The notes under the pieces are model-generated. The model had not been told where the DNA came from. It was given only the letters and a program-made list of their open reading frames with translations, and did not search any database. Of a stretch of 64,000 bases of DNA, positions 3,762 to 55,090 are shown one piece after another (the first letter of the stretch is position 1; every line of letters starts with the position of its first letter). Both the position numbers and the translations under genes were made by a program. The DNA comes from Spirochaetales bacterium (lineage in GTDB: Bacteria > Spirochaetota > Spirochaetia > DSM-2461): assembly GCA_016936555.1 (NCBI GenBank), contig JAFGXR010000103.1, positions 17,931-81,930 on the forward strand. The letters are read 5' to 3'.

Positions 3762-4664
3762 TTACTCTATTTCCTTTAAAATCAGATCGAGGTCATCATT
3801 CCCGTTGCAAACTTTAGAAGAAAAGGAGAGATCAATTTTGTGACTCATTCCTTTATACTCGAAAGTATTTTCCTGAAATACCCTGGAGATCTTGCTCTGA
3901 ATGATTTCAAGACCTTCCGCTTCTGTTTCCGGCAGAAGAATCATAAACTTGTCCCCGCCCCACCGGGCCGTCAAGTCTCTCTCGCGAAGAGAACCGTGAA
4001 TAAGATCCGCCGTCTTCCTTATGATAAAATCACCGCACTCATAGCCGTGTCGTTCGTTATAGTGGCGGCATTTTACTATATTCGCGAGAAGAAGAGTAAA
4101 TTTTTTCTGACTCCTTCTGGAACGGATCTGTTCATCGGTTATTTTTTCGAGGAATGCTCTGCGGTTGTAGACCCTGGTTAGCGGGTCCAGTCGGCTCATA
4201 ATCTCCATTTCCGTAAACGCTTCATCGAGCTGTTTGGCAATCTGATCCTTTTTCCGGCACTCTGCTGTATATTTCTGCCGGTCGAGAATAAGTGAAATAT
4301 AAGGAGACATTCTTGCAACGATCTCAACGGCGCTGAAGGGTTTGACAATATAATCGGAAGCGCCGCTTTCATAGGCTACTTTTTTTTTATGATCTTCTGT
4401 CAGCATGACAATAACCGGGATATTCTTCAATTCTTCTTTTTCACGGATTCGTCTCAGAACTCTCAGGCCTTCCTCATCGGGCAGCGAATCAGCCAGAAGA
4501 ACCAGATCAAAGTTTTTTTTCTGAAGATGCGTCACCACATTGAGCCCCTGTTTAACATAGGAGACTTTGCAATTGTGGCGTCTGAGAAGAGGAACGGTCG
4601 CCTCAACATTTTTCGAGTCGGCTTCAACAATTAGAACATTACAAATTAGAGACATATAAAACAC
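3762..4664 (-). CDS. Atypical receiver domain plus degenerate GGDEF domain protein
   Basis: Receiver-like N-terminus (DLVLLADSLP, VKPF). C-terminal DPLTRVYNRR...RERDLTARWGGDKF. Confidence 0.85.
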   Translation of the reverse strand: MFYMSLICNVLIVEADSKNVEATVPLLRRHNCKVSYVKQGLNVVTHLQKKNFDLVLLADSLPDEEGLRVLRRIREKEELKNIPVIVMLTEDHKKKVAYESGASDYIVKPFSAVEIVARMSPYISLILDRQKYTAECRKKDQIAKQLDEAFTEMEIMSRLDPLTRVYNRRAFLEKITDEQIRSRRSQKKFTLLLANIVKCRHYNERHGYECGDFIIRKTADLIHGSLRERDLTARWGGDKFMILLPETEAEGLEIIQSKISRVFQENTFEYKGMSHKIDLSFSSKVCNGNDDLDLILKEIE

Positions 4665-4722
4665 TCCGGAAATCAGCTGAAAATAAAATCATGGCATTTT
4701 TAATAAGAAAAACTCACCGGCA

Positions 4723-5529
4723 CTATGCCGCTGCAGGGGATTTGGACCACGTCCGGGCTTCATCGAGAAGTCCGGTTAATAAAAGTATGAAAATGTTTTT
4801 TCCTCTCAGAGAATCACAATAAGAAGTCCATTTCCGGTCATCGGAGAATTTTTCACGGTACCGATCCAGTTCCTCATCAGCGAGATCTGATTTGTGACCG
4901 ATGGAATCAAGAGAAAACAAAGTAAGCAGTCGCAAGACATAATCATTTTTGTTTTCCAGAATTTCATTCAGAACAGCTTCCGCCATTTCCCTGTTATTAT
5001 CTCTGATAAGGGAAAAAGCATAAGCCCATTTGACCCAGTCCCTTTCGGCCGTATTCTTCATATCCTTATATTCACCGTAATGCATGAGCGAAGCTGCACT
5101 GTCATCTCTCAGGAAAGGGGGAATACCGAGAAGAAGAGCGAATCTGGGAAGAAGGACCGGTTTTCTTTCGGAAATCTCTCTGGAAAGCCTTTCTATCTTA
5201 TCCAGATTTGAAACGGCCAGAGCCGTGTTGATCATCAGTCTGATATACTGTTTTCTGAATTGTCCCCGTTCGTATATTCTTTCTTCAAGATATTTTGTCA
5301 GGTTTGGCCAGTCTTCTCTTTCCAGATAGATGAAAAGATTCCAGTTTGCGACAAAATAACCGTCCAGTCCGGCGATGAGAAGAATAAAAATCAGCGCGAG
5401 ATACCAATTGTCTTTCCAGAATACAGCGGAATAGCTACCGCTCAGCAAAATCAAAGGAAGAAGAAAAATCAGCGCAAAAGATAAAATAACCACTATATTA
5501 AAGAGAAAAAATATAGATTTAAACTTCAT
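4723..5529 (-). CDS. Hypothetical membrane protein (two N-terminal TM helices, helical cytoplasmic domain)
   Basis: 268-aa ORF with two hydrophobic segments at the N-terminus; divergent from the HD-GYP gene. Confidence 0.75.
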   Translation of the reverse strand: MKFKSIFFLFNIVVILSFALIFLLPLILLSGSYSAVFWKDNWYLALIFILLIAGLDGYFVANWNLFIYLEREDWPNLTKYLEERIYERGQFRKQYIRLMINTALAVSNLDKIERLSREISERKPVLLPRFALLLGIPPFLRDDSAASLMHYGEYKDMKNTAERDWVKWAYAFSLIRDNNREMAEAVLNEILENKNDYVLRLLTLFSLDSIGHKSDLADEELDRYREKFSDDRKWTSYCDSLRGKNIFILLLTGLLDEARTWSKSPAAA

Positions 5530-5593
5530 TTATTGAGCTCCTCTATATATAATTAAGTACAGGGAAATAGAATTTTGTTTCAATGGAGTTTAA

Positions 5594-6760
5594 ATGAACA
5601 AAATACCGCAAGAAAACATTATTGACGGCATGGTTTTCGAATCACCAGTCTATCTCGATAAAAATTATATACTTCTCACTCCGGAAATTCCAGTATCGGA
5701 ATCCCTTAAAAAAAACCTGATGAAATGGGAATACAGGGAACTTGAGACAGAAGGGCCGATTGTGGGAAAAGAATCTCTGGCATCGAGCGATCATAATATG
5801 ACGTCAGCTTTTCTTGATCACGATGCGAAAGAGAAGGAAGGGATAAAAAAAGCCAGACAATTCTATGTGGAAATCCTGGACGCCGTTGAAAAAATCTACC
5901 AGCGCTATTCCAGAGACCAGCATCTTGACCTGAACTACATAACCGAGTACATAAAAAAAATGATAACCATGATCAAGGAGAATCACGATTATATTCTGAG
6001 GCTTCCAGATCTGGATAATTATAACAAGGATTACCTGATAACTCATTCCGTCAAATCGGCGCTTCTGGCTCTGACCATAGGCGAAAGCATAAAGATGCCT
6101 CAATTCAAGCTGATCGAGCTGGGAATATCAGCACTTCTCCATGAAATCGGCATGTTGAAACTTCCCGACAATCTGTATAACTTCACCAGGAAGCTGAGCG
6201 ACTCGGAGAAGAAAGCTCTTACAACCCACACCATTCTGGGCTACCGTCTTTTAAAGGATTTTTCTCTTTCCCAGGACATTCTTATGGGTGTTCTTCAGCA
6301 CCACGAGCGTTGCGACGGAAGCGGATATCCCCAGCAGCTTTCTGCGCCTAAAATTTCTGATTATGCCAAAATTATAAGTATTGTCTGCGCCTATGATGCT
6401 CAGATATCCGACCGGCCTCACAGTGCATCCCGAGACGGATACCATACCCTTATGGAAATGCTGAAGGAAGGGGCCAAGTATGATGAAACAGCCTTGAGAA
6501 CTCTGCTCTACTCGATATCTCTCTATCCTCTCGGCAGTCATGTCATCCTTGAAAACGGTTCTATAGGGGTTGTCGTGCACAACAACAAAGGAAACCCCAA
6601 ATTTCCCATGGTTAAAGTACTTATCGATCCCGACAGAAAACCTCTTGCTGATATGCCAGTCATTGAAACCCGGGACGAGAAAGGACTCAAGATCAAAGAT
6701 ATTCTTAACCGGGATCAAATCCTCAAGTTGAAAGCAGAAGGGCTGATTCAAAAGGATTAG
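5594..6760 (+). CDS. HD-GYP domain protein (c-di-GMP phosphodiesterase family), HE variant
   Basis: THSVKSA...LLHEIGM...HTILGY...QHHERCDGSGYP. GGAG SD upstream. Confidence 0.9.
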   Translation: MNKIPQENIIDGMVFESPVYLDKNYILLTPEIPVSESLKKNLMKWEYRELETEGPIVGKESLASSDHNMTSAFLDHDAKEKEGIKKARQFYVEILDAVEKIYQRYSRDQHLDLNYITEYIKKMITMIKENHDYILRLPDLDNYNKDYLITHSVKSALLALTIGESIKMPQFKLIELGISALLHEIGMLKLPDNLYNFTRKLSDSEKKALTTHTILGYRLLKDFSLSQDILMGVLQHHERCDGSGYPQQLSAPKISDYAKIISIVCAYDAQISDRPHSASRDGYHTLMEMLKEGAKYDETALRTLLYSISLYPLGSHVILENGSIGVVVHNNKGNPKFPMVKVLIDPDRKPLADMPVIETRDEKGLKIKDILNRDQILKLKAEGLIQKD

Positions 6761-6820
6761 CTATGCTATCCCCTATACATTACAATTGAATTATGACGAA
6801 TGTTCAGAAAGGAGATTGTA

Positions 6821-8485
6821 ATGCAGAAACTAAAAGTAACGATTCCCGGCGGCAAGACGATTACATGCGAAAACGGGACTTCTCTACGGGGTATTTCTGA
6901 TCAGGAAAAATTGAATAAAACGGGCTATCCCTTTATGGCGATGAGAGTCAATAACAAAATCTATTCTCTCTCTTCAACTGTCAACTATAACTGTGTTATA
7001 GAACCTGTGGAGTTGGAGTGCAGCGATGGCCTGAGGATTTACAGAAAGAGCCTCTCCTATCTTCTGGAAATGGCATCTAAAGAAGTCTTTCCGGATTTGA
7101 GACTGAAAATCAGTCATTCCATCGGGAGCAGTATCTACTACTATTTTGATGAACAGAGAGATATCGGGGAAAAGGACCTGGACAAACTGAGCGGGAAAAT
7201 GAAAGAGATTGTCGAAGCCGCCTATCCTATCGATATCGTAAAAATCCCTTATATCGAAGCTGTGGAAATGTTCCGGGAATTCAATCAGCCGGAAACGCAA
7301 CTCCTTCTCGAAGGAATGAACTGTTCCTCGATTTCCATGAATGTTTGTAATGGATTTATGGCCCCGTCCTTTTATCCACTGACCGATAATACATCAGCTC
7401 TTCCCTATTTTGAAATTATGAAATACCGGAACGGATTTCTTCTCCGGTATCCCGGTTCAAAAAACCCCAGAGAAATGCTGCCATTTGAAGACAGGCCTCT
7501 GCTCTACTCCATTTATGAAGAGTATAAGAACTGGGGGAAAATCCTCAATGTCAACTGTGTGGGTCAAATGAATAAACTCACCACGAACAAAAAAGAAATG
7601 GAACACTTCATCCGGGTTTCCGAAGCTCTTCACAATAAGAAGATCGCCCATATTGCCGACGAGATCCTTCACAGGAAAGGGGATGTCAAAGTGGTCCTGA
7701 TCGCCGGTCCTTCATCTTCGGGAAAAACAACTTTTACCAAGAAACTGGCAATCGAACTGCAGGTTGTCGGGTTCAATCCGATCATCGTATCTCTTGACGA
7801 TTACTACCGCCCCCGCCATGAAGTTCCGGTCGATGAGTTTGGAAAAGTCGACCTGGAAGCACTTGAAGCTCTGGATGTTCCGCTGCTGAATAGAAACCTG
7901 ATAGATCTTTTCAATAACAAAGAAGTGGAAATTCCTATTTTCGATTTTAAAATCGGCGGAAGAAGAGATACGGGGAAAAAACTTCAGATGGGAGACAGAA
8001 CGATTCTCCTGATGGAGGGAATCCACGGATTGAACGAGCGATTGACTCCCGATATCCCTGCGAGCAGAAAGTATAAAATCTATTTATCAGCTCTTACGCA
8101 GCTCAATATTGACGATCACAACAGAATCGCCACAACAGATAACCGGATAATCAGGAGGATGGTCCGCGATCACCATTTCAGAAATTACGATGCCCTGAAT
8201 ACTTTCAGGATCTGGCCTTCCGTCCGGAGAGGCGAAGAGAAGAATATATTCCCCTATCAGGAGTCGGCCGATTCCGCTTTCAATTCGGCTCTTGACTATG
8301 AAATTTCCGTGCTCAAAGTATACGCGGAACCGCTGCTGCAATCGGTTAAACCCGATTGTCCTGAATACAGCGATGCGTCGAGACTTCTTGATTTTCTCTC
8401 CAGCTTTACAGCTATTCCGAGCCACATGGTCCCGGAATACTCAATTCTGCGGGAGTTTATCGGGAACAGTGCTTTCAAATATTAG
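6821..8485 (+). CDS. Uridine/nucleoside kinase with ThrRS-N-terminal-like (TGS/editing-fold) extension
   Basis: Walker A IAGPSSSGKTT, SLDDYY, MEGIHGLN, RRMVRD in the C-half. The N-half resembles ThrRS N1/N2 domains. ATG 6821 follows AAGGAG. Confidence 0.85.
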   Translation: MQKLKVTIPGGKTITCENGTSLRGISDQEKLNKTGYPFMAMRVNNKIYSLSSTVNYNCVIEPVELECSDGLRIYRKSLSYLLEMASKEVFPDLRLKISHSIGSSIYYYFDEQRDIGEKDLDKLSGKMKEIVEAAYPIDIVKIPYIEAVEMFREFNQPETQLLLEGMNCSSISMNVCNGFMAPSFYPLTDNTSALPYFEIMKYRNGFLLRYPGSKNPREMLPFEDRPLLYSIYEEYKNWGKILNVNCVGQMNKLTTNKKEMEHFIRVSEALHNKKIAHIADEILHRKGDVKVVLIAGPSSSGKTTFTKKLAIELQVVGFNPIIVSLDDYYRPRHEVPVDEFGKVDLEALEALDVPLLNRNLIDLFNNKEVEIPIFDFKIGGRRDTGKKLQMGDRTILLMEGIHGLNERLTPDIPASRKYKIYLSALTQLNIDDHNRIATTDNRIIRRMVRDHHFRNYDALNTFRIWPSVRRGEEKNIFPYQESADSAFNSALDYEISVLKVYAEPLLQSVKPDCPEYSDASRLLDFLSSFTAIPSHMVPEYSILREFIGNSAFKY

Positions 8486-44138: not shown

Positions 44139-46236
44139 CAGGAAAACAAGTACGACCTGCCCTTTCTGCGGGGTGGGCTGTCAGATCGATCTCAATATCA
44201 GAAACGGAGCCATAATCAGCGCCGCAGCGACTCCCGGGAAGGCTCCCAATTACGGAAGACTCTGCGTCAAGGGACGATTCGGAACCGATTACACCCATCA
44301 TCAAAGCAGGCTGACAAAACCGCTGATAAGAAAAGAACTCGACAGGGGGAAACGCACCACCTGCGGCATGGAAGGTTTCAGGGAGGCCACATGGGACGAA
44401 GCTCTGGATCTTGCGGCACAGAGAATATCCCGGACGGTACAGGAATCGGGAGGTTCGGCTTTCGGCACCTTCTGCTGCGCCAAGGCGACAAACGAAGACA
44501 ATTATCTGTTTCAGAAATTTGTCAGAGCCGTTCTTAAAACCAATAACATTGATCATTGCGCCAGGCTGTGTCACGCCGCTTCGGTCGCGGGTCTCCAAAA
44601 AGCATTGGGCTCGGCAGCCATGTCCAATTCCATAGCTGAAATGAAAGATCTGGATCTGTTCATAGTCACAGGATCCAATACGACGGAAACCCATCCGGTT
44701 ATCAGCACGTACCTGAAAGAGGCTGTTGTAAAAAACAAGGCGCGGCTTATAGTCATCGATCCGCGGAAAATTGAAATGGCCGATTTCGCATTACTTCACC
44801 TGCAACATAAACCGGGAACAGACGTGGCTGTCTATCAGGCCATGGCTCATGTCATAGTCAAAAACAAACTCTATGATAAAGATTTCATCGACCGGCGGAC
44901 CGAGGGCTTTGAAGACTACATGACGTCCCTCGAGGCCTTCACTCCCCAATGGGCTGAAGAAATCAGCGGGGTTCCGGCTGGTAAAATCGAAGAGGCGGCG
45001 AAACTTTACGCAGGAGCGGAAAGAGCGGCTTTTTACTGGGGCATGGGAATCAGCCAGAGCGTTCACGGGACCGACAACACCCTGTCCATTGCCAATCTGG
45101 CCTTAATGTGCGGCCACCTGGGAAAACCGGGAACCGGCGTCAATCCGCTGCGGGGGCAGAATAATGTGCAGGGATGCTCCGACTCGGGAGGTCTTCCCAA
45201 CATCTACCCCGGTTACCAGTCCGTTTCCGATGAAGAATCGGCGGTGAAATTTGAAAAAGCCTGGAAAACCTCACTGAACAGAGAACCGGGCCTGACGACC
45301 CTGGAAATGTCCGATGCCATAGGCGAAGGAATTATAAGCGACTTCATTATAATGGGCGAGAACCCCCTGATGAGCGAACCTGATCTCAATAAAGCCAGGA
45401 AGCATCTATCAGAGCTGAAGAATATGATCGTCATCGATATTTTTCTGAACGAGACGGGAGAATACGCCGACGTGATCCTACCCGCCGCGGCATTTTCCGA
45501 AAAAGAGGGAACTTTCACCAACAGCGACCGGAGGGTACAGCTGGTCAGAAAAGCCCTTGATCCGCCCGGAGAAGCCCGGGCCGATTGGGAGATTATCTGT
45601 GAGCTTGCCGGGAGAGTCGGTGATAAACTGGACCGGGATTACAAAGAGAGCTTCAGCTATGATTCGGCTTCGCAGATCTGGGACGAAATGGCATCTCTGG
45701 TTCCGGCTTTCGGCGGCATCAGCCATAAGCGGATAGAAGAGGAGGAGGGAATTCACTGGCCCTGTCCCGATTCTTCCCACAGCGGTACGCCCTATCTTTT
45801 CAGCGACACCTTTCCGAGAGGAAGGGGAAAATTCCACAGACTTGACCATACCGATCTCTCGGAGCGCCCCGACGGAGATTTCCCCTATATATTATCGACG
45901 GGACGGGTTCTCTATCACTGGCATGGAGGAACTATGACCAGGCGCTCTGTATTGAATGATATTTCTCCCGCTCCATTTGCAGAGATACATCCTGACGATG
46001 CTCTGAGGGAAAATCTTGCAGACAACAGCAGGGTCATCGTTTCCTCCCGAAGAGGATCGATCGAGCTCGATATCCGGATCAGCGACCGGTCTCCTGAAGG
46101 AGTTCTTTTCATACCGATCCACTTCGCCGAAGCGGCTGTCAACGAACTCACCCGGGACATCCGGGACGCTTCGGCCAAGATACCGGATTACAAAATCTGC
46201 GCTGTTAAAATAGAAAGAGCTTCTTCGGCGGACTGA
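44128..46236 (+). CDS. fdhF: Formate dehydrogenase catalytic subunit (Mo/W-bisPGD, Cys-type)
   Basis: [25 protein letters not shown] (Cys codon TGT at 44569), [25 protein letters not shown]. Confidence 0.92.
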
Positions 46237-48125
46237 ACCGGCTTCAGACAATAATTGTCACGGCAGAGCATGATCTCATCGGCCTCGCCATGGCCGGGTA
46301 TGCAGATAAGACCGGGCATGTAACCCGACTGGAGCGTTTTTCTCAAGGCATCTCTATCCGGACCGCTGATGGTAGCAATATAAGGTTTATCTATCATAGC
46401 GTTGATCAGTCTGTTCCAGTTGGCGAAATGAATGGTTCCCTTTTCTGCCCGGGACCGCAGAACCTTAGCCATGGCAGTGGCTCTGTCTGTATATTCCTGT
46501 CTGTGGAGTATCAAACCCATCCGATAGAGATTTTCCCCCATCTGCGAATTGGATGAGGGAATCACATTATCCAGTATTTCCTTTTTCCGGGCTATCAACG
46601 GCCTATCCCTGTCGGATTTGTAGAAAAAGAGCGGGGAGTCACTGTCATTAAAATGAGACAACACATAGTTTACCAGTTGTTCCGCCCTTTCCAACCACAG
46701 AGAATCGAAGATCAGCTCGTAGAGAGACAGAAAGGCCGCGGCGGTAAAAGCGTAGTCATCGAGAAAGCCGGGGATATAAGGCCTGCCGGAGCGGAGAGTC
46801 CTGTACAGCAGCCCCTCATCCATGAGGTTCTCAGCTATGAAAACCGCAGCTTTTAAGGCGGCATCGAGAAAGGGCTTATGATTAAAAGCTTTATAGGCAT
46901 CGGCATACCCCAGGATCATCAGGCCGTTCCACGATGCGAGAATTTTATTATCGAGAGCGGGTCTGATCCTTTTTTCCCGTTCTCCGAGAAGAATATTCTT
47001 TATATCCGCCAGATGACCGGGAACATCCTGTGCTGTATCGATATGAAGAATATTCCTGCCCTCCTCCCAGTTGCCCGAATCGGTTACGGAATAATATTTT
47101 TTTATTTCGGCACTCCGGTTCTCCAGAATCCTGTCCAGTTCTCCGGAAGTCCAGGTATAGTAGCGCCCCTCGACCCCTTCGCTGTCCGCATCGAGTGAGG
47201 AATAGAACGGACCTTCCGGCGAAGTCATTTCCCTGGCCAGAAAGGAAGCGGTTTCATATACAATATCTCTGTATTTCTTCCGTCCGGTTCTTCTGAAAGC
47301 ATTGCTGTAAAGGCTCATAAGCTGACCGTTGTCATAGAGCATTTTTTCAAAATGGGGAACTTTCCACTTTGAATCGATGGAATATCGCGCGAATCCCCCT
47401 CCGACCTGATCATAAATTCCCCCGTGGGCCATTTTATCCAATGTCAGGAAGACCTGATTCTCCCCCTCTTCATCACCGGACGAATAACTGTATTCAGCCA
47501 TGAACCGGAGAGATGAGGGCATGGGAAATTTCGGAGAGCCCAAACTCCCGCCCTCAAGAGCATCCTGAAGATGAATCATTTTCCTGAAGACCTTTTCGGT
47601 ATAATCCCCGGTGAACGCTTCCATGTTCACCGGCTCCTCATTCTGTATTGAAGACTGCAGGGCCAGGACAAGAGCTTCCGACTGCTCGCGGATTTTATCG
47701 CCTTTCTCCATCGCATATTGCAGAATCTGGTCGAGAAGGCTCATCCAGTTGTGCAAAGGGAAATAGGTTCCGCCGTAAATCGGTCTTCCATCGGGCAGGG
47801 CAATGATATTGAGGGGCCAACCTCCCGAACCGGTGAGCATCTGCACCGCTTCCATGTAGATCTGATCTATATCGGGCCTTTCCTCGCGATCGACTTTGAT
47901 GGAAATGAAATTTTCATTCATAAACCGGGCCGCTTCGGGGTTCTCAAAACATTCTCTTTCCATGACATGGCACCAGTGACAGGCCGCATATCCGATGCTG
48001 ATGATGAGAAGTTTGTTTTCTCCGGCTGCGGCATTTAAAGCCTCTTCGCCCCAGGGATACCAATCAACGGGATTGGCCGCATGCTGGAGAAGATAGGGGC
48101 TGGTTTCATTTTGCAGTCTGTTCAT
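46188..48125 (-). CDS. Thioredoxin-domain protein, YyaL/SSP411 (DUF255) family
   Basis: [42 protein letters not shown]. Confidence 0.93.
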
Positions 48126-48196
48126 AACTAATGTCCCGCTTATACGTTTATTCAATTTGTTATTACTAATATAGTGCGGCTAAGCTATTTATCTAA

Positions 48197-48231
48197 CAAA
48201 AAAAGAGAGACCGCCGGCAGGAGGCGGTCTC
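48197..48231 (-). terminator. Intrinsic terminator after the SPFH gene
   Basis: GAGACCGCC-7nt-GGCGGTCTC followed by a T-run on the minus strand. Confidence 0.75.
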
Positions 48232-48263
48232 CACAAAATATGTCAGACAGTAAGAAATTACTG

Positions 48264-49508
48264 TTACTGATTCTGCTTTGAAATCTCTTTCTGAATATTC
48301 ATAAAAGATTCAAGTCCGACAGCGTCCCAGGGATTCATGGGGGATCCCTCTCCGCCTCCGAATATCATCATCTCGGGGAGATCGACGCTGGCCATGTTTT
48401 TGGAAACGACGTCAGCGATTTTCAGATCGAACTCCGCTTTCTGCTGCGGTGTCAGACCGGCCTGAACTTTCAGCCGGTTCGATTCCGCTTCGGCCCGCTC
48501 GACAACGAGTTTGGCTTCGGCTTCGAACTGGGCGGCTTCCTGGCGGAGCCTTGCGACTTCTTTTTCCTTCTCGGCGTTGAGCTCGGCAACTTCTTTTTCT
48601 TTTTCTGCCTGGGTTACGGCTGTGATTTTGGAAACCTCTTCATCAGCTTTAGCCTTGGCGATTCTGGCCTTACCTTCCTCTTCTGCCGTTATGGCGTCCT
48701 GGCGGGCTTTTTCGGCATTGGTTATGGCCACGGCTTTTTCCTGTTCGGCTTTTTTCTTCTGGGCGATAAGTGCGTCGATGGTTTCATCATAATCGATATC
48801 TTTCAGAGTGTTATTCACCAGTTCCAGACCGTATTCCTTGAATATACCCGGTTTCGTAACGATCGGGTTGCCGGCTTCATCGGTTTTAATAACGACTTTA
48901 GTTGAAGTCGCCATGACGGGATTGCCCTCTTCATCCACTTCATTTGTAGGTGTCTGAATTTCTATTGTTGTCGTGGCATATAATCCATGGGCGATCTGGT
49001 CGGAAATCAGCTGTGCGAACTCCCCTCTTCTTGTGGAATATGTCTCATCCGCTTTGAAAGTGGAGGCTGTCTGCTTTTCAACTTCTATAACCCATTGTCT
49101 GACCTGAGCGGCCATGGACTGAAAAGATCTGAAGTTTCTGTGGATTTTGATAATATCCTCTTCGATCAGGGGCATCCTCCACTGGGTGACGGAACCTATT
49201 TCCGCCGTACCGCCGTCTCCGAATCTGACAGTGGTCGCCTGGGTGTCACTGCCCATTCCGCCGTCGAGAGGATCGTTGGAGAGATAAGTTTCATGAGTTC
49301 TGTAGTATTTTGTTATTTTCCCGAACATCTGGGGATATAACCCCTCTTCCGTCCTGATTGTAAGAGTACCGGTTATGAATGCCTGTTTGACATGTATTTC
49401 CCCTCCCTCCACAGTCTCCACAAGAGACTGGGAGAAGAAAAGAACAACACCGGCGATTATAGCGAAAACAACTAAAAACCCGATTCTTTTTGGACTTACT
49501 TTTGCCAT
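48264..49508 (-). CDS. SPFH/Band 7 (flotillin-like) membrane protein
   Basis: N-terminal TM segment, band-7-like core (LKDIDYDETI), Ala/Glu-rich coiled coil (AEKEKEVA repeats). Confidence 0.8.
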   Translation of the reverse strand: MAKVSPKRIGFLVVFAIIAGVVLFFSQSLVETVEGGEIHVKQAFITGTLTIRTEEGLYPQMFGKITKYYRTHETYLSNDPLDGGMGSDTQATTVRFGDGGTAEIGSVTQWRMPLIEEDIIKIHRNFRSFQSMAAQVRQWVIEVEKQTASTFKADETYSTRRGEFAQLISDQIAHGLYATTTIEIQTPTNEVDEEGNPVMATSTKVVIKTDEAGNPIVTKPGIFKEYGLELVNNTLKDIDYDETIDALIAQKKKAEQEKAVAITNAEKARQDAITAEEEGKARIAKAKADEEVSKITAVTQAEKEKEVAELNAEKEKEVARLRQEAAQFEAEAKLVVERAEAESNRLKVQAGLTPQQKAEFDLKIADVVSKNMASVDLPEMMIFGGGEGSPMNPWDAVGLESFMNIQKEISKQNQ

Positions 49509-49628: not shown

Positions 49629-50015
49629 TTAAATTTCAATCTTTATTAATGTGTCACCCTGAACGGGAAGCGTCACTTCTCCCCAGTGAGACTCCCCGTC
49701 ATTCCATTCCAGTCTGATTCGATAACCTGCAATCACCTGCTTCAACGCGCTAAGCACAGGAGGAACGATTTTATCGGGATAAACCCTAATGAACTCGTTC
49801 TGCCAGCAGGAAATTGCCTTCTCTGCCAGAGGATCGTCAAGACTGATCGGCTGAAAAGAGCCGGGCACAGCCTTACCGGAAGTTTGAGTCACAGCACTCC
49901 CGGGCTTCCTATCGCCTTCATCCCTCGCGCCTCCTGAGAAGAGCGAGGTTGAAACGGACAGGAATATGATCAGAGCAATTACGGCACTCAGCTTTCGGGT
50001 GTAGATGGATCCCAT
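49629..50015 (-). CDS. Exported cystatin-like protein (putative cysteine-protease inhibitor)
   Basis: Signal peptide; PGSFQPISLDDP; QVIAG (QxVxG-like) at residues 93-97; AAAGAGGGG SD; overlaps the protease gene by 28 nt. Confidence 0.6.
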   Translation of the reverse strand: MGSIYTRKLSAVIALIIFLSVSTSLFSGGARDEGDRKPGSAVTQTSGKAVPGSFQPISLDDPLAEKAISCWQNEFIRVYPDKIVPPVLSALKQVIAGYRIRLEWNDGESHWGEVTLPVQGDTLIKIEI

Positions 50016-52267
50016 GCCGCCCCCTCTTTATATCCGACAATAGTCTGTGCGTGATCCGGTGAAGTCGGATACCAGACAGTCCCTGATCCGACGACGTCAT
50101 TTGTATCGAGATTATCATATGTTGTGTCGGTAAAGATGGCCGTGCTGACGATGTACCCCATATTAAGCAGCGCTTTGAGCATCTGGATATCACTGTCGTC
50201 CTCTATGATGAAATAGCAGTAATTATCGTCAGGCCAGTAGTAATTTCCCAGTTCCTCACCTCTGTACCGTGGCGCTTCCCGCCAGGCGGCTTCAGAAGGC
50301 CAGTATGTAAAATCCGATGACAATTCTTGATTCCTGTAAGGCATTGTGCTCCAGGTGGCACCGCCCTGCCGGATTATGGTTGATATGGCACTGCCGGGCC
50401 AGGCACCTTCATCGACACCGTTATTGATCTGATTATAGAGAAAATCGGGACTGAAGATTTTATTCAGATTCGATTGCGGACTGCCCGCATCAGAAACTCC
50501 GGTTATATCGGAACCCCAAGTGGTGGCCGACAGATCCCAGCCATGCTCTTTCGCCTCGGTGTAGGTCTGGATATAGTATCCGACGGAGAATGCCGCGCAG
50601 GAACCTTTCTGCCCCTGGTTCCCGACTGGGGGAAAGTAATCAGTCGCGGAATTGTCCACCGATAGAGGGAGAGTCGTCCCGTCGAAAGAAGCCCGCAGAT
50701 TATAGATTCCGGTCTCCACACTTTCCAATTTCACCATGCTATTCCATTCCTCCTCGGAGGGAGGGCGGTATCCTGTACCATGGCCTTTGTAGAGTTTATT
50801 ATAATCGACACCGGGTTTTGAAACTCCCAAGGCGATTTTGTCCCGAGCCAGTTCAGAGGATGCCGGCTGTGCCACAGAAAAACTTGATGAAGTTGTCGAT
50901 CTGAGAAGGGGGATTATCGCCTGCAGTTCCGTACGGGTCAACATCCCGATTGTATTAACCGTCGCATTTAATCCTGAACCGGCGGGAATCGATCCTGTAT
51001 CCGATGAACTCTGGGTTTTAAAAGCAGCTGCCGGGTCATTAGAATAGCTATTGTAAAACTCCACACTCAAATTATCGAGAGTACCTGTCGTTGATCCGGT
51101 ATTTTCAATCGAAACAAATAAATTATAATCATTGATAGCCGGAGCGAACTCCGTAATATCGAGAATCATTTTGTTGGCCGGGAATGCGATATCGCCGCCC
51201 ATGGGCGTTCCATCCCAGCCCCGGGATTCGAAGACCTTAGTCATAAGCGGATCGGATGGATCTCCCAGTCCGAAAGTAACTTTTATTTCATCCCTATGGG
51301 CATGTGTTATCCTGAAGCTGGCTATAATGGAAGGATCGTATTCTGCTGAAAAATCATTTTTATAGAAGAAAACCCCCAATTTATTGGCCTTCAGTACACT
51401 GTAGGGCATCCAGTAGCTGCCGTCGTCAACATTTTCCCAGCCTCCCACGCCCCAGGAGTTGACTATCTTCACGGCTCCCTCAGGAAGTACTTCATCATCG
51501 CTGACAATCAGCACGGCCGTATCTTCCGGCAGAGAAATATTGTTATTCTCGTTGAGTTCTGAAACAGCATCAGTGGCATCCATCACCACGCCGATATAAT
51601 ATGTTCCCGCGGGAACATCCGGTACAGTCAAACTGAAATCTGACGAATCTGAAACATATATCTCAGAAGATGCCCTACTGGAATAATTATAGATATAATC
51701 GTATAGAAGATAGTCTTCTGAAGGATCTATGACATTATCTCCTGACAAATAAAAATGAATATTCTGGGGTCCGGCATCGGTATCACCCAGATTATTCATA
51801 TAGGAGAAAATATTGAACTGATCTCCGGGGTTGACAATAAAGGAATCATTCCAGGATCCGAATCCTATATACAGCTGGTTTGTTGTCATCAGATCAGGCC
51901 GTCCTGATAATGCCCCGACTTCGCCGAGATCTCTCAGCCATGAATTATCGGAAATATCCCGAACCATCACGTGATTACCCAGGCTCAAGCTCACAGATTC
52001 GGAAGAACCGGAACATTCGGTCCAACTCACTCCTCCATCAAGCGAAAACTCCATATTAACTGTCGTATTGACTATCTGACTGTTCAAAATATCAAGATAT
52101 GTAGTTGTATTTATCCCGATATCAGGTGTTGATGTAAAATCTCCATCCACCGGAGGGGTATCATCAGTCGTACTCCCCGGATCTTTTCCGACGGGATTTT
52201 CACAGGAGAAAAAAAACATTCCCCCCACAAGGATCAATAAGATATTAAGCAAAGATCGGATTTTCAT
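49988..52267 (-). CDS. Lipoprotein C1 (papain-like) peptidase with CARDB domain; catalytic domain apparently circularly permuted
   Basis: Lipobox FFFSC22; CARDB-like DAVSELNENNN; VKIVNSWG (N270); PPVGNQGQKGSC (Q551/C557); DHAQTIVGY (H739). Confidence 0.85.
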   Translation of the reverse strand: MKIRSLLNILLILVGGMFFFSCENPVGKDPGSTTDDTPPVDGDFTSTPDIGINTTTYLDILNSQIVNTTVNMEFSLDGGVSWTECSGSSESVSLSLGNHVMVRDISDNSWLRDLGEVGALSGRPDLMTTNQLYIGFGSWNDSFIVNPGDQFNIFSYMNNLGDTDAGPQNIHFYLSGDNVIDPSEDYLLYDYIYNYSSRASSEIYVSDSSDFSLTVPDVPAGTYYIGVVMDATDAVSELNENNNISLPEDTAVLIVSDDEVLPEGAVKIVNSWGVGGWENVDDGSYWMPYSVLKANKLGVFFYKNDFSAEYDPSIIASFRITHAHRDEIKVTFGLGDPSDPLMTKVFESRGWDGTPMGGDIAFPANKMILDITEFAPAINDYNLFVSIENTGSTTGTLDNLSVEFYNSYSNDPAAAFKTQSSSDTGSIPAGSGLNATVNTIGMLTRTELQAIIPLLRSTTSSSFSVAQPASSELARDKIALGVSKPGVDYNKLYKGHGTGYRPPSEEEWNSMVKLESVETGIYNLRASFDGTTLPLSVDNSATDYFPPVGNQGQKGSCAAFSVGYYIQTYTEAKEHGWDLSATTWGSDITGVSDAGSPQSNLNKIFSPDFLYNQINNGVDEGAWPGSAISTIIRQGGATWSTMPYRNQELSSDFTYWPSEAAWREAPRYRGEELGNYYWPDDNYCYFIIEDDSDIQMLKALLNMGYIVSTAIFTDTTYDNLDTNDVVGSGTVWYPTSPDHAQTIVGYKEGAAWDPSTPES

Positions 52268-52477
52268 TTCTACTCCTGAAAGGATTGATTTAACCTGAAA
52301 ATTTCATTTTTTTGAAATACAAGAACATATTTTTATCATAAAAAAATATGACAGTAAATGAATTCTCAATTATGAAACTCATATATTACCCATAATACCT
52401 CATTAACATCTCTTCATCCCGCTAACGAATGAAAATAATGTCCGGAAACCTTAATTTTCAGGCTTCCGGAATCATCA

Positions 52478-53230
52478 TCAACGACAGAAAACCCTTATGG
52501 CATCGCGGAAAAAAACAGCCAGCCCTTCGCCGTACTTATCGAAATTCTTCGCAAAACGGTTATCATCGACGTACATCTCGCCGAGGCCCGCCAGCATTTC
52601 ATCACTGGTTTCGTAGAACCATTTGTTCAGGTGCTCTTTCCAGCGGCGGACCTGATCCTGCACCTCAGAGTCATCGGCTTCCCTGTCCATCAGCGATGCC
52701 AAATTTCTGTAGATATCCTCCGACTCCGCTTTTATAGCCGCCCACTCTTTTTCCTTGTAGTTTTTTGTTCGTCTTGCGCTTTCTCTGTACGCGTCGCTGC
52801 CGCCCCATTTTTCCCTGGCTTCATCGGCGTATTTTCTCCTGTGCTCTTCCACTTCCTTCGTGTCAAATGCATCGAACATTTTATTCTTATCCATTTCAAG
52901 ACCCTCCTTTTCACTGGCGATAGTTACATCTATCGCCTCAATTATCCTTTCGAGACGTTTTCTCTTTACGAGAAGAAGTTCGCGCTGTCTGCAGAGTGCG
53001 TCAACTCCGCCGGAACCGGGGCTGGAAACCATTTTCTTTATAGCATCCAGAGGGAACTCCAGTTCCCGGAGAAACAGGATCTGCTGCAGCCGGGCGAGAT
53101 TGCCATCGCCGTAGAGTCTGTATCCGTTTTCCCCGATCTGCTGTGGAACAAGCAGTCCGATCCGGTCGTAATGGTGGAGAGTCCGTACGCTGATCCCCGC
53201 CAGTTCGGCCATTTCTTTCACTTTGTACAT
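52478..53230 (-). CDS. MerR family regulator with TipAS antibiotic-recognition domain
   Basis: SVRTLHHYDRIGLL; EARE(K)WG; GLGEMYVDDNRF. Confidence 0.93.
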   Translation of the reverse strand: MYKVKEMAELAGISVRTLHHYDRIGLLVPQQIGENGYRLYGDGNLARLQQILFLRELEFPLDAIKKMVSSPGSGGVDALCRQRELLLVKRKRLERIIEAIDVTIASEKEGLEMDKNKMFDAFDTKEVEEHRRKYADEAREKWGGSDAYRESARRTKNYKEKEWAAIKAESEDIYRNLASLMDREADDSEVQDQVRRWKEHLNKWFYETSDEMLAGLGEMYVDDNRFAKNFDKYGEGLAVFFRDAIRVFCR

Positions 53231-53253
53231 AAGTTTTCCTACCTCTCAGGATA

Positions 53254-53284
53254 AAGATAAAGTATGACGTTACGTTATAGTCAA
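53254..53284 (-). promoter_or_regulatory. MerR-type promoter/operator with 19-bp spacer
   Basis: TTGACT, 19 nt, TATCTT, enclosing the dyad TATGACGT-t-ACGTTATA (53263-53279). Confidence 0.8.
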
Positions 53285-53394
53285 TCGAAAAAATAATTTT
53301 TCTTGCAACATTCCCTTTTCAGAGTTTAAATAATAATTACTCTATTCAATAAGGCTGAAGAAAAGGGGTGGCCCTTAAATAGCCGCGGATAGCC

Positions 53395-53470
53395 ATGAAG
53401 GATTCAATCCCGAAAGGCTTCCGACAGGGAATCGGGAATTGAATCCTCAGAATATACATAACTGAGGATT
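53395..53470 (+). promoter_or_regulatory. Structured leader with a 15-codon uORF and mutually exclusive hairpins upstream of the GNAT gene
   Basis: uORF 53395-53442; stem 53399-53413/53432-53447 competes with the SD-occluding stem 53442-53450/53462-53470. Confidence 0.55.
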
Positions 53471-53473
53471 TTT

Positions 53474-54193
53474 ATGGACAAAGAAAGAATACAGAACATT
53501 ATTCTTGAAGACCGGGGAAAGTTTTACGGCTGCTCGAGAGATACATTCTTCACGAAAGGCACCACGTTCAACCACAGGGAATCTTTCGATGGAAAAGAGA
53601 CTCTTTATTTAACCCCGTTTTATGAGCACACGTTTATAACCGCAGGCCGCGAGATAATCGAACGTCTTTCGCCGCACAGGCATATCTCCCTGAGCAACGA
53701 CTTAATATCGGAACTCATTCCGGGATTAAAAATTGAAATGACCTACCCTCATTTTCTCTATTACGGCTCCGAAATCGCCGTTCCCTCCGTTTCTCCGGAC
53801 TATGAAATAGTCTCAGCCGATCCGTCTGATCATTCACGGCTCAGAGAATTCCTGGACGGTTGTACGGAAGAGGATATAGAAGATGCCCTTATCGATCTCG
53901 ATGATCCCGATGAGCAGATACGCCTGATATTGCACAGAGGTAAGCCGGTCGGATACGGGGCCTACAGGAGATGGGGTCAGGAAATGGGAGATGTGGGGAT
54001 TCTCATCCAGCGGGAACACAGAAGAAGAGGACTGGGCCGTGCCGCTGTTGCGGCGGCGACTCAGGCCTGCCTTGACAATGACTGCCTCCCCTTTTACAGA
54101 ACATCGAGCGATAATCCGGGATCCGAAAGGATAGCCAGAAGTCTCGGCTATACATTCGAATGGATGACGACAGAGTTAAATATGGACAATTGA
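53474..54193 (+). CDS. GNAT family acetyltransferase
   Basis: C-terminal DVGILIQREHRRRGLGRAA...NPGSERIARSLGY. Confidence 0.88.
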   Translation: MDKERIQNIILEDRGKFYGCSRDTFFTKGTTFNHRESFDGKETLYLTPFYEHTFITAGREIIERLSPHRHISLSNDLISELIPGLKIEMTYPHFLYYGSEIAVPSVSPDYEIVSADPSDHSRLREFLDGCTEEDIEDALIDLDDPDEQIRLILHRGKPVGYGAYRRWGQEMGDVGILIQREHRRRGLGRAAVAAATQACLDNDCLPFYRTSSDNPGSERIARSLGYTFEWMTTELNMDN

Positions 54194-54250
54194 TAAGTCC
54201 GGCGCTCACCCGGACAGACTGCGTGAAAATTAGGAGATTGCCTTTACCAA

Positions 54251-54286
54251 CCCTCACCCCCGTCCCCTCTCCCACGAGGAGAGGGG
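54251..54286. repeat. REP-like palindrome (CCCTCACCCC...CCCCTCTCC-cacga-GGAGAGGGG); may also act as a terminator
   Basis: 9-bp perfect stem preceded by CCCTCACCC; single copy in the window. Confidence 0.5.
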
Positions 54287-54361
54287 TGTTTTGTTGGAAT
54301 TCACTCTTTATCAGCTGCCTCTCTTGTTTATGCAGCTCCAGAAAGTCATAATGTCAATCAG

Positions 54362-55090
54362 ATGGACAGCCTCAATCTAAGCGAACAATACGACAAACTG
54401 AACAAAATGATTTTCAACGGTCTCCTTCCCGGAGGGATTCAGATTAAATGGAATCATTCGCGTACGAATCTGGGTAAAACCCGGATATCCATGAAATCCG
54501 ACGGGACTTCTGATTTTCGCATAACCATTAGCCGTTTTTTTCTCTGTACTGAAAAACAGTACATTGAGACTCTCATCCACGAAATGATTCATGTCCTTAT
54601 GGTTGTCTCCGGTGAGTTCCGTAAAGACGGGAGAGTGCACGGACCCCTCTTCAGGCACCATATGGACCGTATCAACAGAGAGTTTCCCCAATATAGAATA
54701 ACGATCAAAGAAGATGGACCTGTCGATGTCGATTACGGCAAAATACGCCTGCAGCGCGGTTTTCTGCTCTGCAGCGGAGATAAAATATACTTCAATCTCC
54801 TGAACAGAGATATACAGGATAAAGACCGCCGCCAGGTTGTCCGCCGGATTCCCGGAGCCTATAAAATCAGTGAAGGCGATCTCTACTTCTTTGAAGGGCG
54901 ATTTGCCGAGCTGGCGACAGCTCCTGTCAGAAGAAACATAAATACATTCATCGGAAAGCTCCAGTACCTGAAGGACAGGGAAGCAATGGAAAGATTGAGG
55001 GATAACATAATCGAAAATCCACATATCTACATCCCTATAATAAAGAGCAACCGGATTAAAAATCAGGTTTTCCCTTTCAGGAGTCTCTGA
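54362..55090 (+). CDS. SprT-like zinc metalloprotease domain protein
   Basis: TLIHEMIH (HExxH), HGPLF. Confidence 0.85.
   Translation: MDSLNLSEQYDKLNKMIFNGLLPGGIQIKWNHSRTNLGKTRISMKSDGTSDFRITISRFFLCTEKQYIETLIHEMIHVLMVVSGEFRKDGRVHGPLFRHHMDRINREFPQYRITIKEDGPVDVDYGKIRLQRGFLLCSGDKIYFNLLNRDIQDKDRRQVVRRIPGAYKISEGDLYFFEGRFAELATAPVRRNINTFIGKLQYLKDREAMERLRDNIIENPHIYIPIIKSNRIKNQVFPFRSL

Follow-up and report, generated by a model that had tools for sequence, protein, structure and literature searches.

The locus and its peptidase gene

The window analysed here is a stretch of 64,000 nucleotides from a Spirochaetales bacterium (GenBank assembly GCA_016936555.1, contig JAFGXR010000103.1, positions 17,931 to 81,930). 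Its subject is an uninterrupted open reading frame (ORF) of 759 codons on the minus strand (positions 49988–52267, stop codon 49988–49990), together with the small gene for a cystatin-like protein that overlaps its 3′ end. The ORF encodes a predicted lipoprotein carrying the catalytic motifs of papain-type (C1A) cysteine peptidases in a rotated order. Codon-by-codon translation placed N270 first, then Q551 and C557, and finally H739. The Asn-strand motif GAVKIVNSWG...GSYWMPY carries N270 and W272, Q551 and C557 sit in the motif PPVGNQGQKGSC, and H739 lies in DHAQTIVGY, 20 residues before the end of the chain. The corresponding minus-strand codons are at 51458–51460 (N270), 50615–50617 (Q551), 50597–50599 (C557) and 50051–50053 (H739). 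An earlier reading of this DNA (the original prediction) had given these residues in this order and the same distance from the His to the C-terminus, and it agreed with the translation at every named residue; the motif GHGTGYRPPSEEEW is likewise present as written there. It had also called the protein a lipoprotein, which fits the sequence: the signal peptide, MKIRSLLNILLILVGGMFFFSC, ends in the lipobox FFFSC, read by inspection as MKIRSLLNILLILVGGMFFFS-C22, and the Cys is kept in at least 90% of 10 homologues. The lipoboxes of spirochaetes are loose.

The metagenomic origin of the window speaks for an assembly or gene-calling artefact, in which the contig is chimeric or two adjacent truncated genes have been called as a single ORF. 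However, the ORF is uninterrupted, and the 2.8-kb locus was found base for base, without joints, in contigs of two public metagenome runs, one from freshwater and one from sediment. Misassembly, the danger pointed out in the original prediction, is ruled out, as far as the data reach, by these two independent, identical and jointless assemblies of different samples. The same architecture also occurs in 39 genomes, including those of cultured Pleomorphochaeta and Marispirochaeta, and the chance of an artefact is negligible. The permuted order is real, and neither artefact nor chance. A 172-nt contig from the sediment metatranscriptome of the same study matches positions 50251–50422, inside the peptidase gene, with zero differences; it hints at transcription of the gene in situ, DNA carry-over being the other possible source.

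Similarity to the papain family

Three sequence hallmarks of family C1 were found in the window protein. The Q-x5-C/G-S-C motif is present as NQGQKGSC (Q551, C557) and aligned to NQGQCGSC of cathepsins K and L, the His-strand pattern [DN]-H-A-x-x-[IV]-V-G-Y is present as DHAQTIVGY (H739), and the N-S-W-G motif beginning at N270 aligned to RNSWG of xylellain. The linear order Cys–His–Asn of the family is not kept, the order here being Asn270, Cys557, His739.

The two halves of the catalytic region were searched separately, as the original prediction had proposed, and each returned papain-family structures. The profile of the Cys–His half (A7) matched cathepsin K (E 8.4e-8) and the heavy chain of cathepsin L (E 4e-6); in the alignment LP.SVD...NQG..GSC fell onto the start of the mature enzyme and the region of Cys25, and NHAQTIVGY onto NHAVLVVGY of cathepsin K. 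The profile of the Asn segment (A6, 50 positions) matched residues 250–284 of xylellain (3ois; FRIRNSWG...DGYFWMPYEY) at E 1.8e-4. When the profile was built from a sister family of standard order (A3), xylellain was matched at E 3.3e-6, with the HA..VGYDD and NSWG blocks aligned in one stretch. Searches of other kinds returned little: an NCBIfam scan of the whole protein gave no match, the whole-protein Pfam scan gave only CARDB and a sub-threshold Peptidase_C1, and a single-sequence phmmer search of the PDB reached only E about 0.3.

Standard-order relatives and the site of the cut

The sister family is represented by seven proteins, mostly from archaeal or uncultured lineages (P0011–P0017), which are 36–41% identical to the window protein and have the canonical order. 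Its hosts are mainly Bathyarchaeia, Thermoplasmata, Methanomassiliicoccales and Bacteroidota. The family is uncharacterised, and two of the seven are labelled 'C1A family cysteine protease' by the Joint Genome Institute (JGI). A sister chain runs from a signal peptide through a GHGTGLRPP segment, FPPIGNQ..GSC, NHANTIVGYDD, a loop and GAFKIANSWGVGGWENV.DG.YWISY to a beta-sandwich starting FRI.H..R. The spacing from His to Asn is mostly 27–30 residues (20 in one protein), and in the sister-family profile alignment the hairpin loop is 10 residues longer than that of xylellain. Shared with the window protein are the GHGTG..PP segment, FPPIGNQG..GSC, NHA.TIVGY, GAFK..NSWG..DG.YW.SY and the beta-sandwich after the Asn strand. 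The two families differ in arrangement: sister proteins have the order Cys–His–Asn–beta-sandwich, with the catalytic unit N-terminal and varied C-terminal domains after it, whereas the permuted module is always C-terminal in its chain.

BLAST comparison of the window protein with each of the seven relatives gave two high-scoring segment pairs in swapped order, query 470–750 on subject about 40–320 and query 255–410 on subject about 305–480. An un-permuted construct, in which residues 481–759 were followed by 255–480, could be aligned colinearly with P0012 right through the junction (E 2e-82; 442 aligned amino acids, 38% identity). This locates the cut in the hairpin loop that links the His and Asn strands, where the original prediction had placed it. 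A loop so long and exposed is a natural site for new termini, and the tail of 9–21 residues at the C-terminus of the permuted proteins is the kept stump of the His–Asn loop.

Conservation and distribution of the permuted order

Homologues with the same motif order, which the original prediction had suggested looking for, proved to be numerous. A word-indexed search yielded nine further full-length proteins, 41–50% identical to the window protein, with the same motif order and the same C-terminal end. An exhaustive HMMER search covered 1.84 billion representatives of clusters formed at 50% identity and gave 4124 relatives; the order of the motifs was scored in the best 150 of these. In 70 of the 150, a single colinear stretch spanned roughly residues 263–748 of the query and invariably ran to the C-terminus of the matched protein, and 75 had the two halves in the opposite order. 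Together with the window protein the 70 representatives formed an alignment of 71 permuted sequences, mutually no more than 50% identical, in which N270, G273, Q551, C557, H739 and G745 are invariant (71/71), S271 and W272 are each present in 70/71, and the chain ends 9–21 amino acids past the His in every member. All four catalytic residues (Q, C, H and N) are thus fully conserved, in line with the original view that the gene is not a product of simple decay. The Asn strand is under the same constraint as the nucleophile, and this speaks against both decay and a vestigial N-terminal piece.

Among the 80 loci listed as matches from the GTDB species-genome collection, 39 had the permuted order. 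The hosts, from Spirochaetota, Riflebacteria, Fibrobacterota and Mesotoga, belong to four bacterial phyla. Many are Spirochaetia, among them the cultured Pleomorphochaeta sp. DL1XJH-081 and metagenome-assembled genomes (MAGs) of Sediminispirochaeta, Treponematales and Sphaerochaetaceae, and cultured Marispirochaeta carries the permuted architecture as well. The others are Candidatus Riflebacteria, with several paralogues per genome, Fibrobacteraceae, Chitinivibrionales and one Mesotoga MAG. In the MAG of Candidatus Riflebacteria isolate nHGRbin4 at least four permuted paralogues were seen on separate contigs (L009, L013, L020, L023). The Marispirochaeta aestuarii protein WP_083048748.1 and its relatives (P0165–P0167) are named 'CARDB domain-containing protein' or 'hypothetical protein'; the cluster representative of the former (P0020) is 53% identical to the window protein. 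The JGI name for permuted members is 'hypothetical protein'. Current annotation pipelines, NCBI's included, thus overlook the protease domain.

The extensions ahead of the permuted module range from 9 to about 1900 residues. The minimal member P0045 (517 amino acids) has nothing but a lipoprotein signal and a short linker ahead of the module. At one spirochaete locus (L026) two minimal permuted genes lie in tandem on the plus strand (3899–5530 and 5610–7319, encoding 543 and 569 amino acids), and both paralogues have a lipoprotein signal, an acidic linker rich in Ser, Asp and Glu, and a permuted core.

Origin of the permutation

A neighbour-joining tree was computed from 65 permuted and 58 standard-order cores, the former having been un-permuted first (Kimura distances, 100 bootstraps, numpy implementation). 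All permuted sequences fell on one side of a single split, the sole misplaced sequence being the distant outgroup P0018; in the bootstraps, 89 of the 100 trees had no more than one sequence out of place. This topology fits one permutation event. Most economically, a standard-order gene would have undergone one tandem duplication or fusion and then lost both of its ends. No tandem Cys–His–Asn–Cys–His intermediate was found among the 150 best representatives. One candidate, P0052, was rejected as an evolutionary intermediate: the second 'His motif' at its residue 176 is a chance match to the regular expression, and the protein is an ordinary permuted member.

Predicted structure and assembly of the active site

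The full-length protein was modelled with AlphaFold2 on a 24-row alignment, giving a predicted local distance difference test score (pLDDT) of 80.3 and a predicted template modelling score (pTM) of 0.78. The core, residues 250–759, was modelled on a 30-row alignment with pLDDT 86.5 and pTM 0.90. Within the core model the Asn-strand segment reached pLDDT 93–96, and low confidence was restricted to 456–460, 520–531 and two surface loops. A pTM of 0.90 over 510 residues means that both halves and the intervening beta-sandwich are packed in one confidently predicted body. In such a body N270, C557 and H739 would presumably form a triad. In a Foldseek comparison of the core with the PDB, chains of xylellain came out on top (probability 0.99–1.00, 231–289 aligned columns), followed by the mite C1A allergen Blo t 1 (0.98). 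With the full-length model, matches to CARDB and macroglobulin-like beta-sandwiches dominated, and xylellain took rank 38.

The model bears on the way in which the two halves come together. Permuted proteins are prone to swapping, and the enzyme might work only as a domain-swapped dimer or oligomer, each barrel being completed by the Asn strand of a neighbouring molecule. About 230 residues lie between the halves, including a whole domain and the low-confidence linkers 456–460 and 520–531, and nothing in the sequence forces assembly within one chain. Against such complementation, AlphaFold2 puts both halves in one compact body with high pTM, a monomer prediction being unable to show a swap, and minimal single-module members such as P0045 exist. 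We regard a domain swap as improbable.

A second alternative is that residues 532–748 work as a Cys–His dyad on their own, the NSWG segment being the vestige of a truncated upstream paralogue and a structural appendage of the beta-sandwich. Many clan CA enzymes do use a dyad (PMC10318531). The C-terminal part, however, is without the last barrel strands of the R-domain, which only residues 263–303 can supply; NSWG is as invariant as the Cys and the His, and the Asn segment has the highest confidence in a model that forms a single body. A dyad enzyme is in our judgement highly improbable. Sequence comparison, conservation within the family and the predicted fold support a description of the protein as a topological variant of papain family C1, permuted circularly at the His–Asn hairpin, and not as a new kind of enzyme.

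Domain layout

The features of the gene and of its surroundings are collected in Table 1. Behind the predicted lipidation site, residues 23–52 form a disordered linker; the full-length model has a helix at 3–19 and then disorder from 20 to 52. The N-terminal beta domain is kept across the full-length subfamily and is absent from minimal members such as P0045. The CARDB assignment agrees with Foldseek matches to the CARDB structures 3idu and 2kl6 (probability 1.00).

The beta-sandwich is always directly C-terminal to the Asn strand, in the permuted and the standard-order families alike, and its R325 is invariant (71/71). No Pfam family covers residues 305–440, and Foldseek gave only PLAT/C2-like matches (probability 0.4–0.9, E at least 0.02); a PLAT/C2 family label was dropped because these matches are too weak. 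BLAST similarity to the standard-order proteins begins again at about residue 456–472, within or just after the connector. In the pro-region-like segment G499 is present in 71/71 permuted sequences, P502 in 66/71 and P503 in 65/71, and pLDDT falls below 50 at 520–531. In standard-order relatives this segment is located between the signal peptide and the catalytic domain. Its G-x-G-T-G-x-x-P-P motif (residues 495–503, about 50759–50785 on the minus strand) is near-invariant in both families, N-terminal to the catalytic domain in each; it may serve as a pro-region plug, as a processing signal or in some other way.

Table 1. Features of the peptidase gene and its neighbourhood, in window coordinates
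Feature	Coordinates	Strand	Basis or remark
Whole gene, 759-aa permuted C1A-like peptidase lipoprotein (predicted)	49988..52267	-	ORF list; full-length same-order homologues; two identical assemblies
Signal peptide and lipobox, residues 1-22; Cys22 predicted lipidation site	52202..52267	-	Translation; C22 conservation
N-terminal beta domain, residues 55-135, MEYSLDGG..W motif, accessory	51863..52105	-	All-beta, pLDDT 85-93 (AlphaFold2)
CARDB domain, residues 146-244	51536..51832	-	Pfam PF07705, E 6.1e-8, 33.2 bits vs cut-off 22.7
Relocated C-terminal papain R-domain strands (predicted), residues 263-303, Asn270/Trp272 (NSWG) and DG.YW.PY strand	51359..51481	-	Conservation; xylellain match; pLDDT 93-96
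Beta-sandwich domain, residues 305-440 (FRITHAHRDEIKVTFGLGDP...)	50948..51355	-	Colinear with domain after NSWG in P0011-P0017; all-beta, pLDDT about 90-97
Connector, residues 441-469, from ancestral C-terminal domain to ancestral N-terminal region (predicted)	50861..50947	-	pLDDT <50 at 456-460; variable in family alignment
Pro-region-like segment, residues 470-531, G-x-G-T-G-x-x-P-P motif (GHGTGYRPP), disordered end 520-531	50675..50860	-	Conservation; place in standard-order relatives; putative function
L-domain and first half of R-domain (predicted), residues 532-748; Gln551 (oxyanion hole), Cys557 (nucleophile), His739	50024..50674	-	Conservation; cathepsin profile matches; Foldseek
C-terminal tail, residues 749-759 (GAAWDPSTPES), putative stump of former His-to-Asn hairpin loop	49991..50023	-	71 permuted sequences end 9-21 residues past His
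Cystatin-like gene, 128-aa secreted protein (predicted)	49629..50015	-	28-nt overlap with peptidase 3′ end; own GAGGGGG ribosome-binding site
Upstream AT-rich intergenic region, ribosome-binding site AGGAG 7 nt before ATG	52268..52470	-	Sequence; terminator scan
MerR/TipAS-type regulator	52478-53230		Upstream neighbour
GNAT acetyltransferase	53474-54193	opposite	Upstream
SprT-like protein	54362-55090	opposite	Upstream
SPFH/Band 7 protein	48264-49508	-	Downstream neighbour
DUF255 thioredoxin-domain protein	46188-48155	-	Downstream neighbour

The cystatin-like neighbour and surroundings

The protein encoded by the overlapping gene has a signal peptide, a conserved G52 and the motif Q93-V-I-A-G97 (QVIAG). 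Orthologues lie directly downstream of the permuted peptidase gene in 11–12 spirochaete loci, and the Gly and the Q-x-V-x-G motif are invariant across 9 of them. A profile of these proteins matched plant multicystatin (2e-6), the phytocystatin scaffold Adhiron (7.4e-6), tick cystatins (9e-6) and cystatin C (1e-3). Pfam Cystatin (PF00031) stayed below threshold, at E 0.016 in 4 of the 9 members and with no match for the window copy, and the P-W motif of the second cystatin hairpin was not visible in the alignment of the 9 orthologues. Other marks of the cystatin superfamily (MEROPS I25), the Gly and Q-x-V-x-G together with significant similarity, are present, and the 128-residue protein is cystatin-like, of a divergent, stefin-like kind.

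The conserved position of the gene points to a protease–inhibitor pair, in which the cystatin-like protein would be the probable cognate inhibitor of the window peptidase. A cystatin-type inhibitor translationally coupled to the peptidase gene gives independent support for an active papain-type peptidase. No cystatin-like neighbour was detected in the Riflebacteria loci. At the L026 locus a single cystatin-like ORF (7229–7651) was seen downstream of the tandem peptidase genes.

Upstream, a terminator-like hairpin at 52441–52470 closes the MerR/TipAS gene and is followed by 170 nt of AT-rich spacer; the peptidase gene is accordingly predicted to begin a transcription unit. A sigma-70 promoter scan gave scattered consensus matches inside the gene and none that was convincing upstream of it. 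No mobile-element genes were seen among the neighbours beside the peptidase gene (46188–49508 and 52478–55090).

Discussion

We consider it probable that the window protein is a secreted, lipid-anchored cysteine endopeptidase of the papain family (C1A-like), with a catalytic domain that nature has permuted circularly. As sister-family chains still do, the ancestral chain would have run from a signal peptide and a short pro-like region through the Cys helix and L-domain, the His strand and a long hairpin loop to the Asn strand (NSWG) and the beta-sandwich. With the His-to-Asn hairpin loop opened, the Asn strand and beta-sandwich (263–440) of the window protein stand ahead of the pro-like region and the Cys-to-His part (470–748), and the loop stump closes the chain. 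Both pieces would come together intramolecularly as an ordinary papain fold. In such a fold Cys557 would act as the nucleophile and His739 as the general base, with Asn270 orienting the His, Trp272 shielding the Asn–His hydrogen bond and Gln551 forming the oxyanion hole. The permuted module would later have been joined to varied N-terminal domains, in this case the lipoprotein signal, the small beta domain and CARDB, and the cystatin-like protein from the overlapping gene would most likely restrain the enzyme in the periplasm. What the analysis shows directly is the permuted order, its conservation, the homology of each piece to the corresponding part of C1A enzymes and a compact fold predicted with confidence; triad geometry, catalytic activity, assembly within the chain and the inhibitor role of the neighbour are inferred.

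Several observations weigh against this reading. Pfam Peptidase_C1 (PF00112) scored only 14.6 bits against a gathering score of 20.7, and over residues 533–580 only, so that membership of C1 rests on the profile searches; among standard-order relatives the same model reached E values up to 1e-5 in only 2 of 12. The residue after the catalytic Cys, usually Trp, is A, V, T or S in the 71-sequence alignment, which would make this a divergent C1 clade. Foldseek scores to C1A structures were modest (target-normalised TM-scores of 0.46–0.49, E about 2e-3); such values are to be expected when an order-dependent aligner is applied to a permuted fold, though they are no proof of one. The neighbour-joining tree is a simple one, built on Kimura distances without testing of models, and it places the outgroup P0018 on the permuted side.

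The sub-threshold Pfam score and the replaced Trp would also suit a catalytically dead pseudo-peptidase, its fold kept for binding substrates or ligands at the cell surface, and the accessory CARDB and beta-sandwich domains suggest adhesion-like roles. Invariance of the Gln, Cys, His and Asn in all 71 of these mutually divergent sequences argues against this, and a translationally coupled gene for a cystatin-type inhibitor makes little sense for an inactive protein. We consider a dead binding module very improbable.

The original prediction had further suggested that the segment before the Cys motif might be an internal propeptide, whose removal would give a two-chain enzyme. The disordered stretch 520–531 stops just before LPLSVD, which aligned with the mature N-terminus of cathepsin (APDSVDY). 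By analogy this would be the site of classical propeptide removal, and an internal propeptide with a two-chain product is plausible. More tentatively, and with the odds against it, the protein could represent a new kind of zymogen. Autocleavage within 520–531 would separate a lipid-anchored chain bearing Asn270 from a non-covalently bound chain bearing Cys557 and His739, the two joined only by their shared beta-barrel, with 470–531 as an internal pro-region and the co-translated periplasmic cystatin as a safety catch. If true, family C1 would have its first natural circular permutant, cut where cathepsin L is nicked, and bacterial cystatins would gain an endogenous target.

Cathepsin L offers a parallel to the position of the cut. 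Its catalytic residues are Cys25, His163 and Asn187, and its two-chain form is active. The heavy chain in PDB entries (e.g. 1ICF, 2XU3) has 175 residues and is accompanied by a light chain; with the numbering above, this places the physiological nick in the same His-to-Asn loop, so that free chain ends at this position are known to be compatible with the papain fold. In both proteins the break falls in the same surface loop, the heavy chain of cathepsin L holding Cys and His and the light chain Asn and Trp. In cathepsin L, however, the break arises after translation, by nicking of a chain in normal order, whereas the gene of the window protein itself specifies the break, with an extra domain bridging the old termini.

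Among solved structures, xylellain of Xylella fastidiosa (PDB 3OIS) and Legionella Lpg2622 (PDB 6A0N) are the best profile and fold matches, with the His and NSWG/DGYFWMPYE blocks aligned. They differ in their canonical order, in an identity of about 18%, and in being without the inserted beta-sandwich and the lipoprotein or CARDB context.

Natural circular permutations of the papain-like fold with a functional active site have been described in the permuted NlpC/P60-type enzymes of clan CA (LRAT, YaeF/YiiX, PPPDE; PMC10318531, PMC3142127). In those enzymes the Cys-bearing helix, with or without strand beta1′, lies behind the barrel and the order is His–polar–Cys, whereas in the window protein it is Asn–Cys–His: Cys557 precedes His739, only the Asn strand is relocated, and the similarity is to C1A and not to NlpC/P60. 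Cluster I, which includes papain and the cathepsins, is described as canonical (PMC10318531). A 2023 phylogenomic survey of the papain family makes no mention of permutation and left multidomain prokaryotic C1A proteins unanalysed (PMC10380794). No paper combining circular permutation with C1A was found among those listed by full-text searches of the literature, nor a named family in Pfam or NCBIfam; as far as the searched literature and databases reach, the permuted family is undescribed.

The pairing with the cystatin-like gene also has precedents. Bacterial cysteine peptidases occur in operons with dedicated inhibitors that protect the producer, as in staphopain–staphostatin and SpeB–Spi. 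As in those operons, a gene for a secreted clan CA peptidase is here followed by a small gene whose product is a predicted inhibitor, and the analogy suggests a producer-protecting function like that of the staphostatins. The candidate differs from them in being cystatin-like, with an I25-type G and QxVxG, and in having a signal peptide. Bacterial cystatins have been viewed as aimed at host cathepsins (PMC2784779).

With these proteins the archetypal family C1 gains a clade of rotated order, with no fewer than 70 clusters (50% identity) and with members in the genomes of 39 species from four bacterial phyla. As the permuted clade escapes the protease models of Pfam and NCBIfam, the protease inventories of spirochaetes and Riflebacteria are undercounted. 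The clade represents a natural experiment on the papain fold, in which the His–Asn hairpin could be opened in the gene and a whole domain inserted between the old termini, and it may be of use in protein engineering, for example in split or permuted cathepsin sensors. Finally, a bacterial cystatin and a bacterial C1 peptidase share an operon here, an arrangement which suggests that bacterial cystatins, hitherto read only as anti-host factors, have an endogenous function as well.

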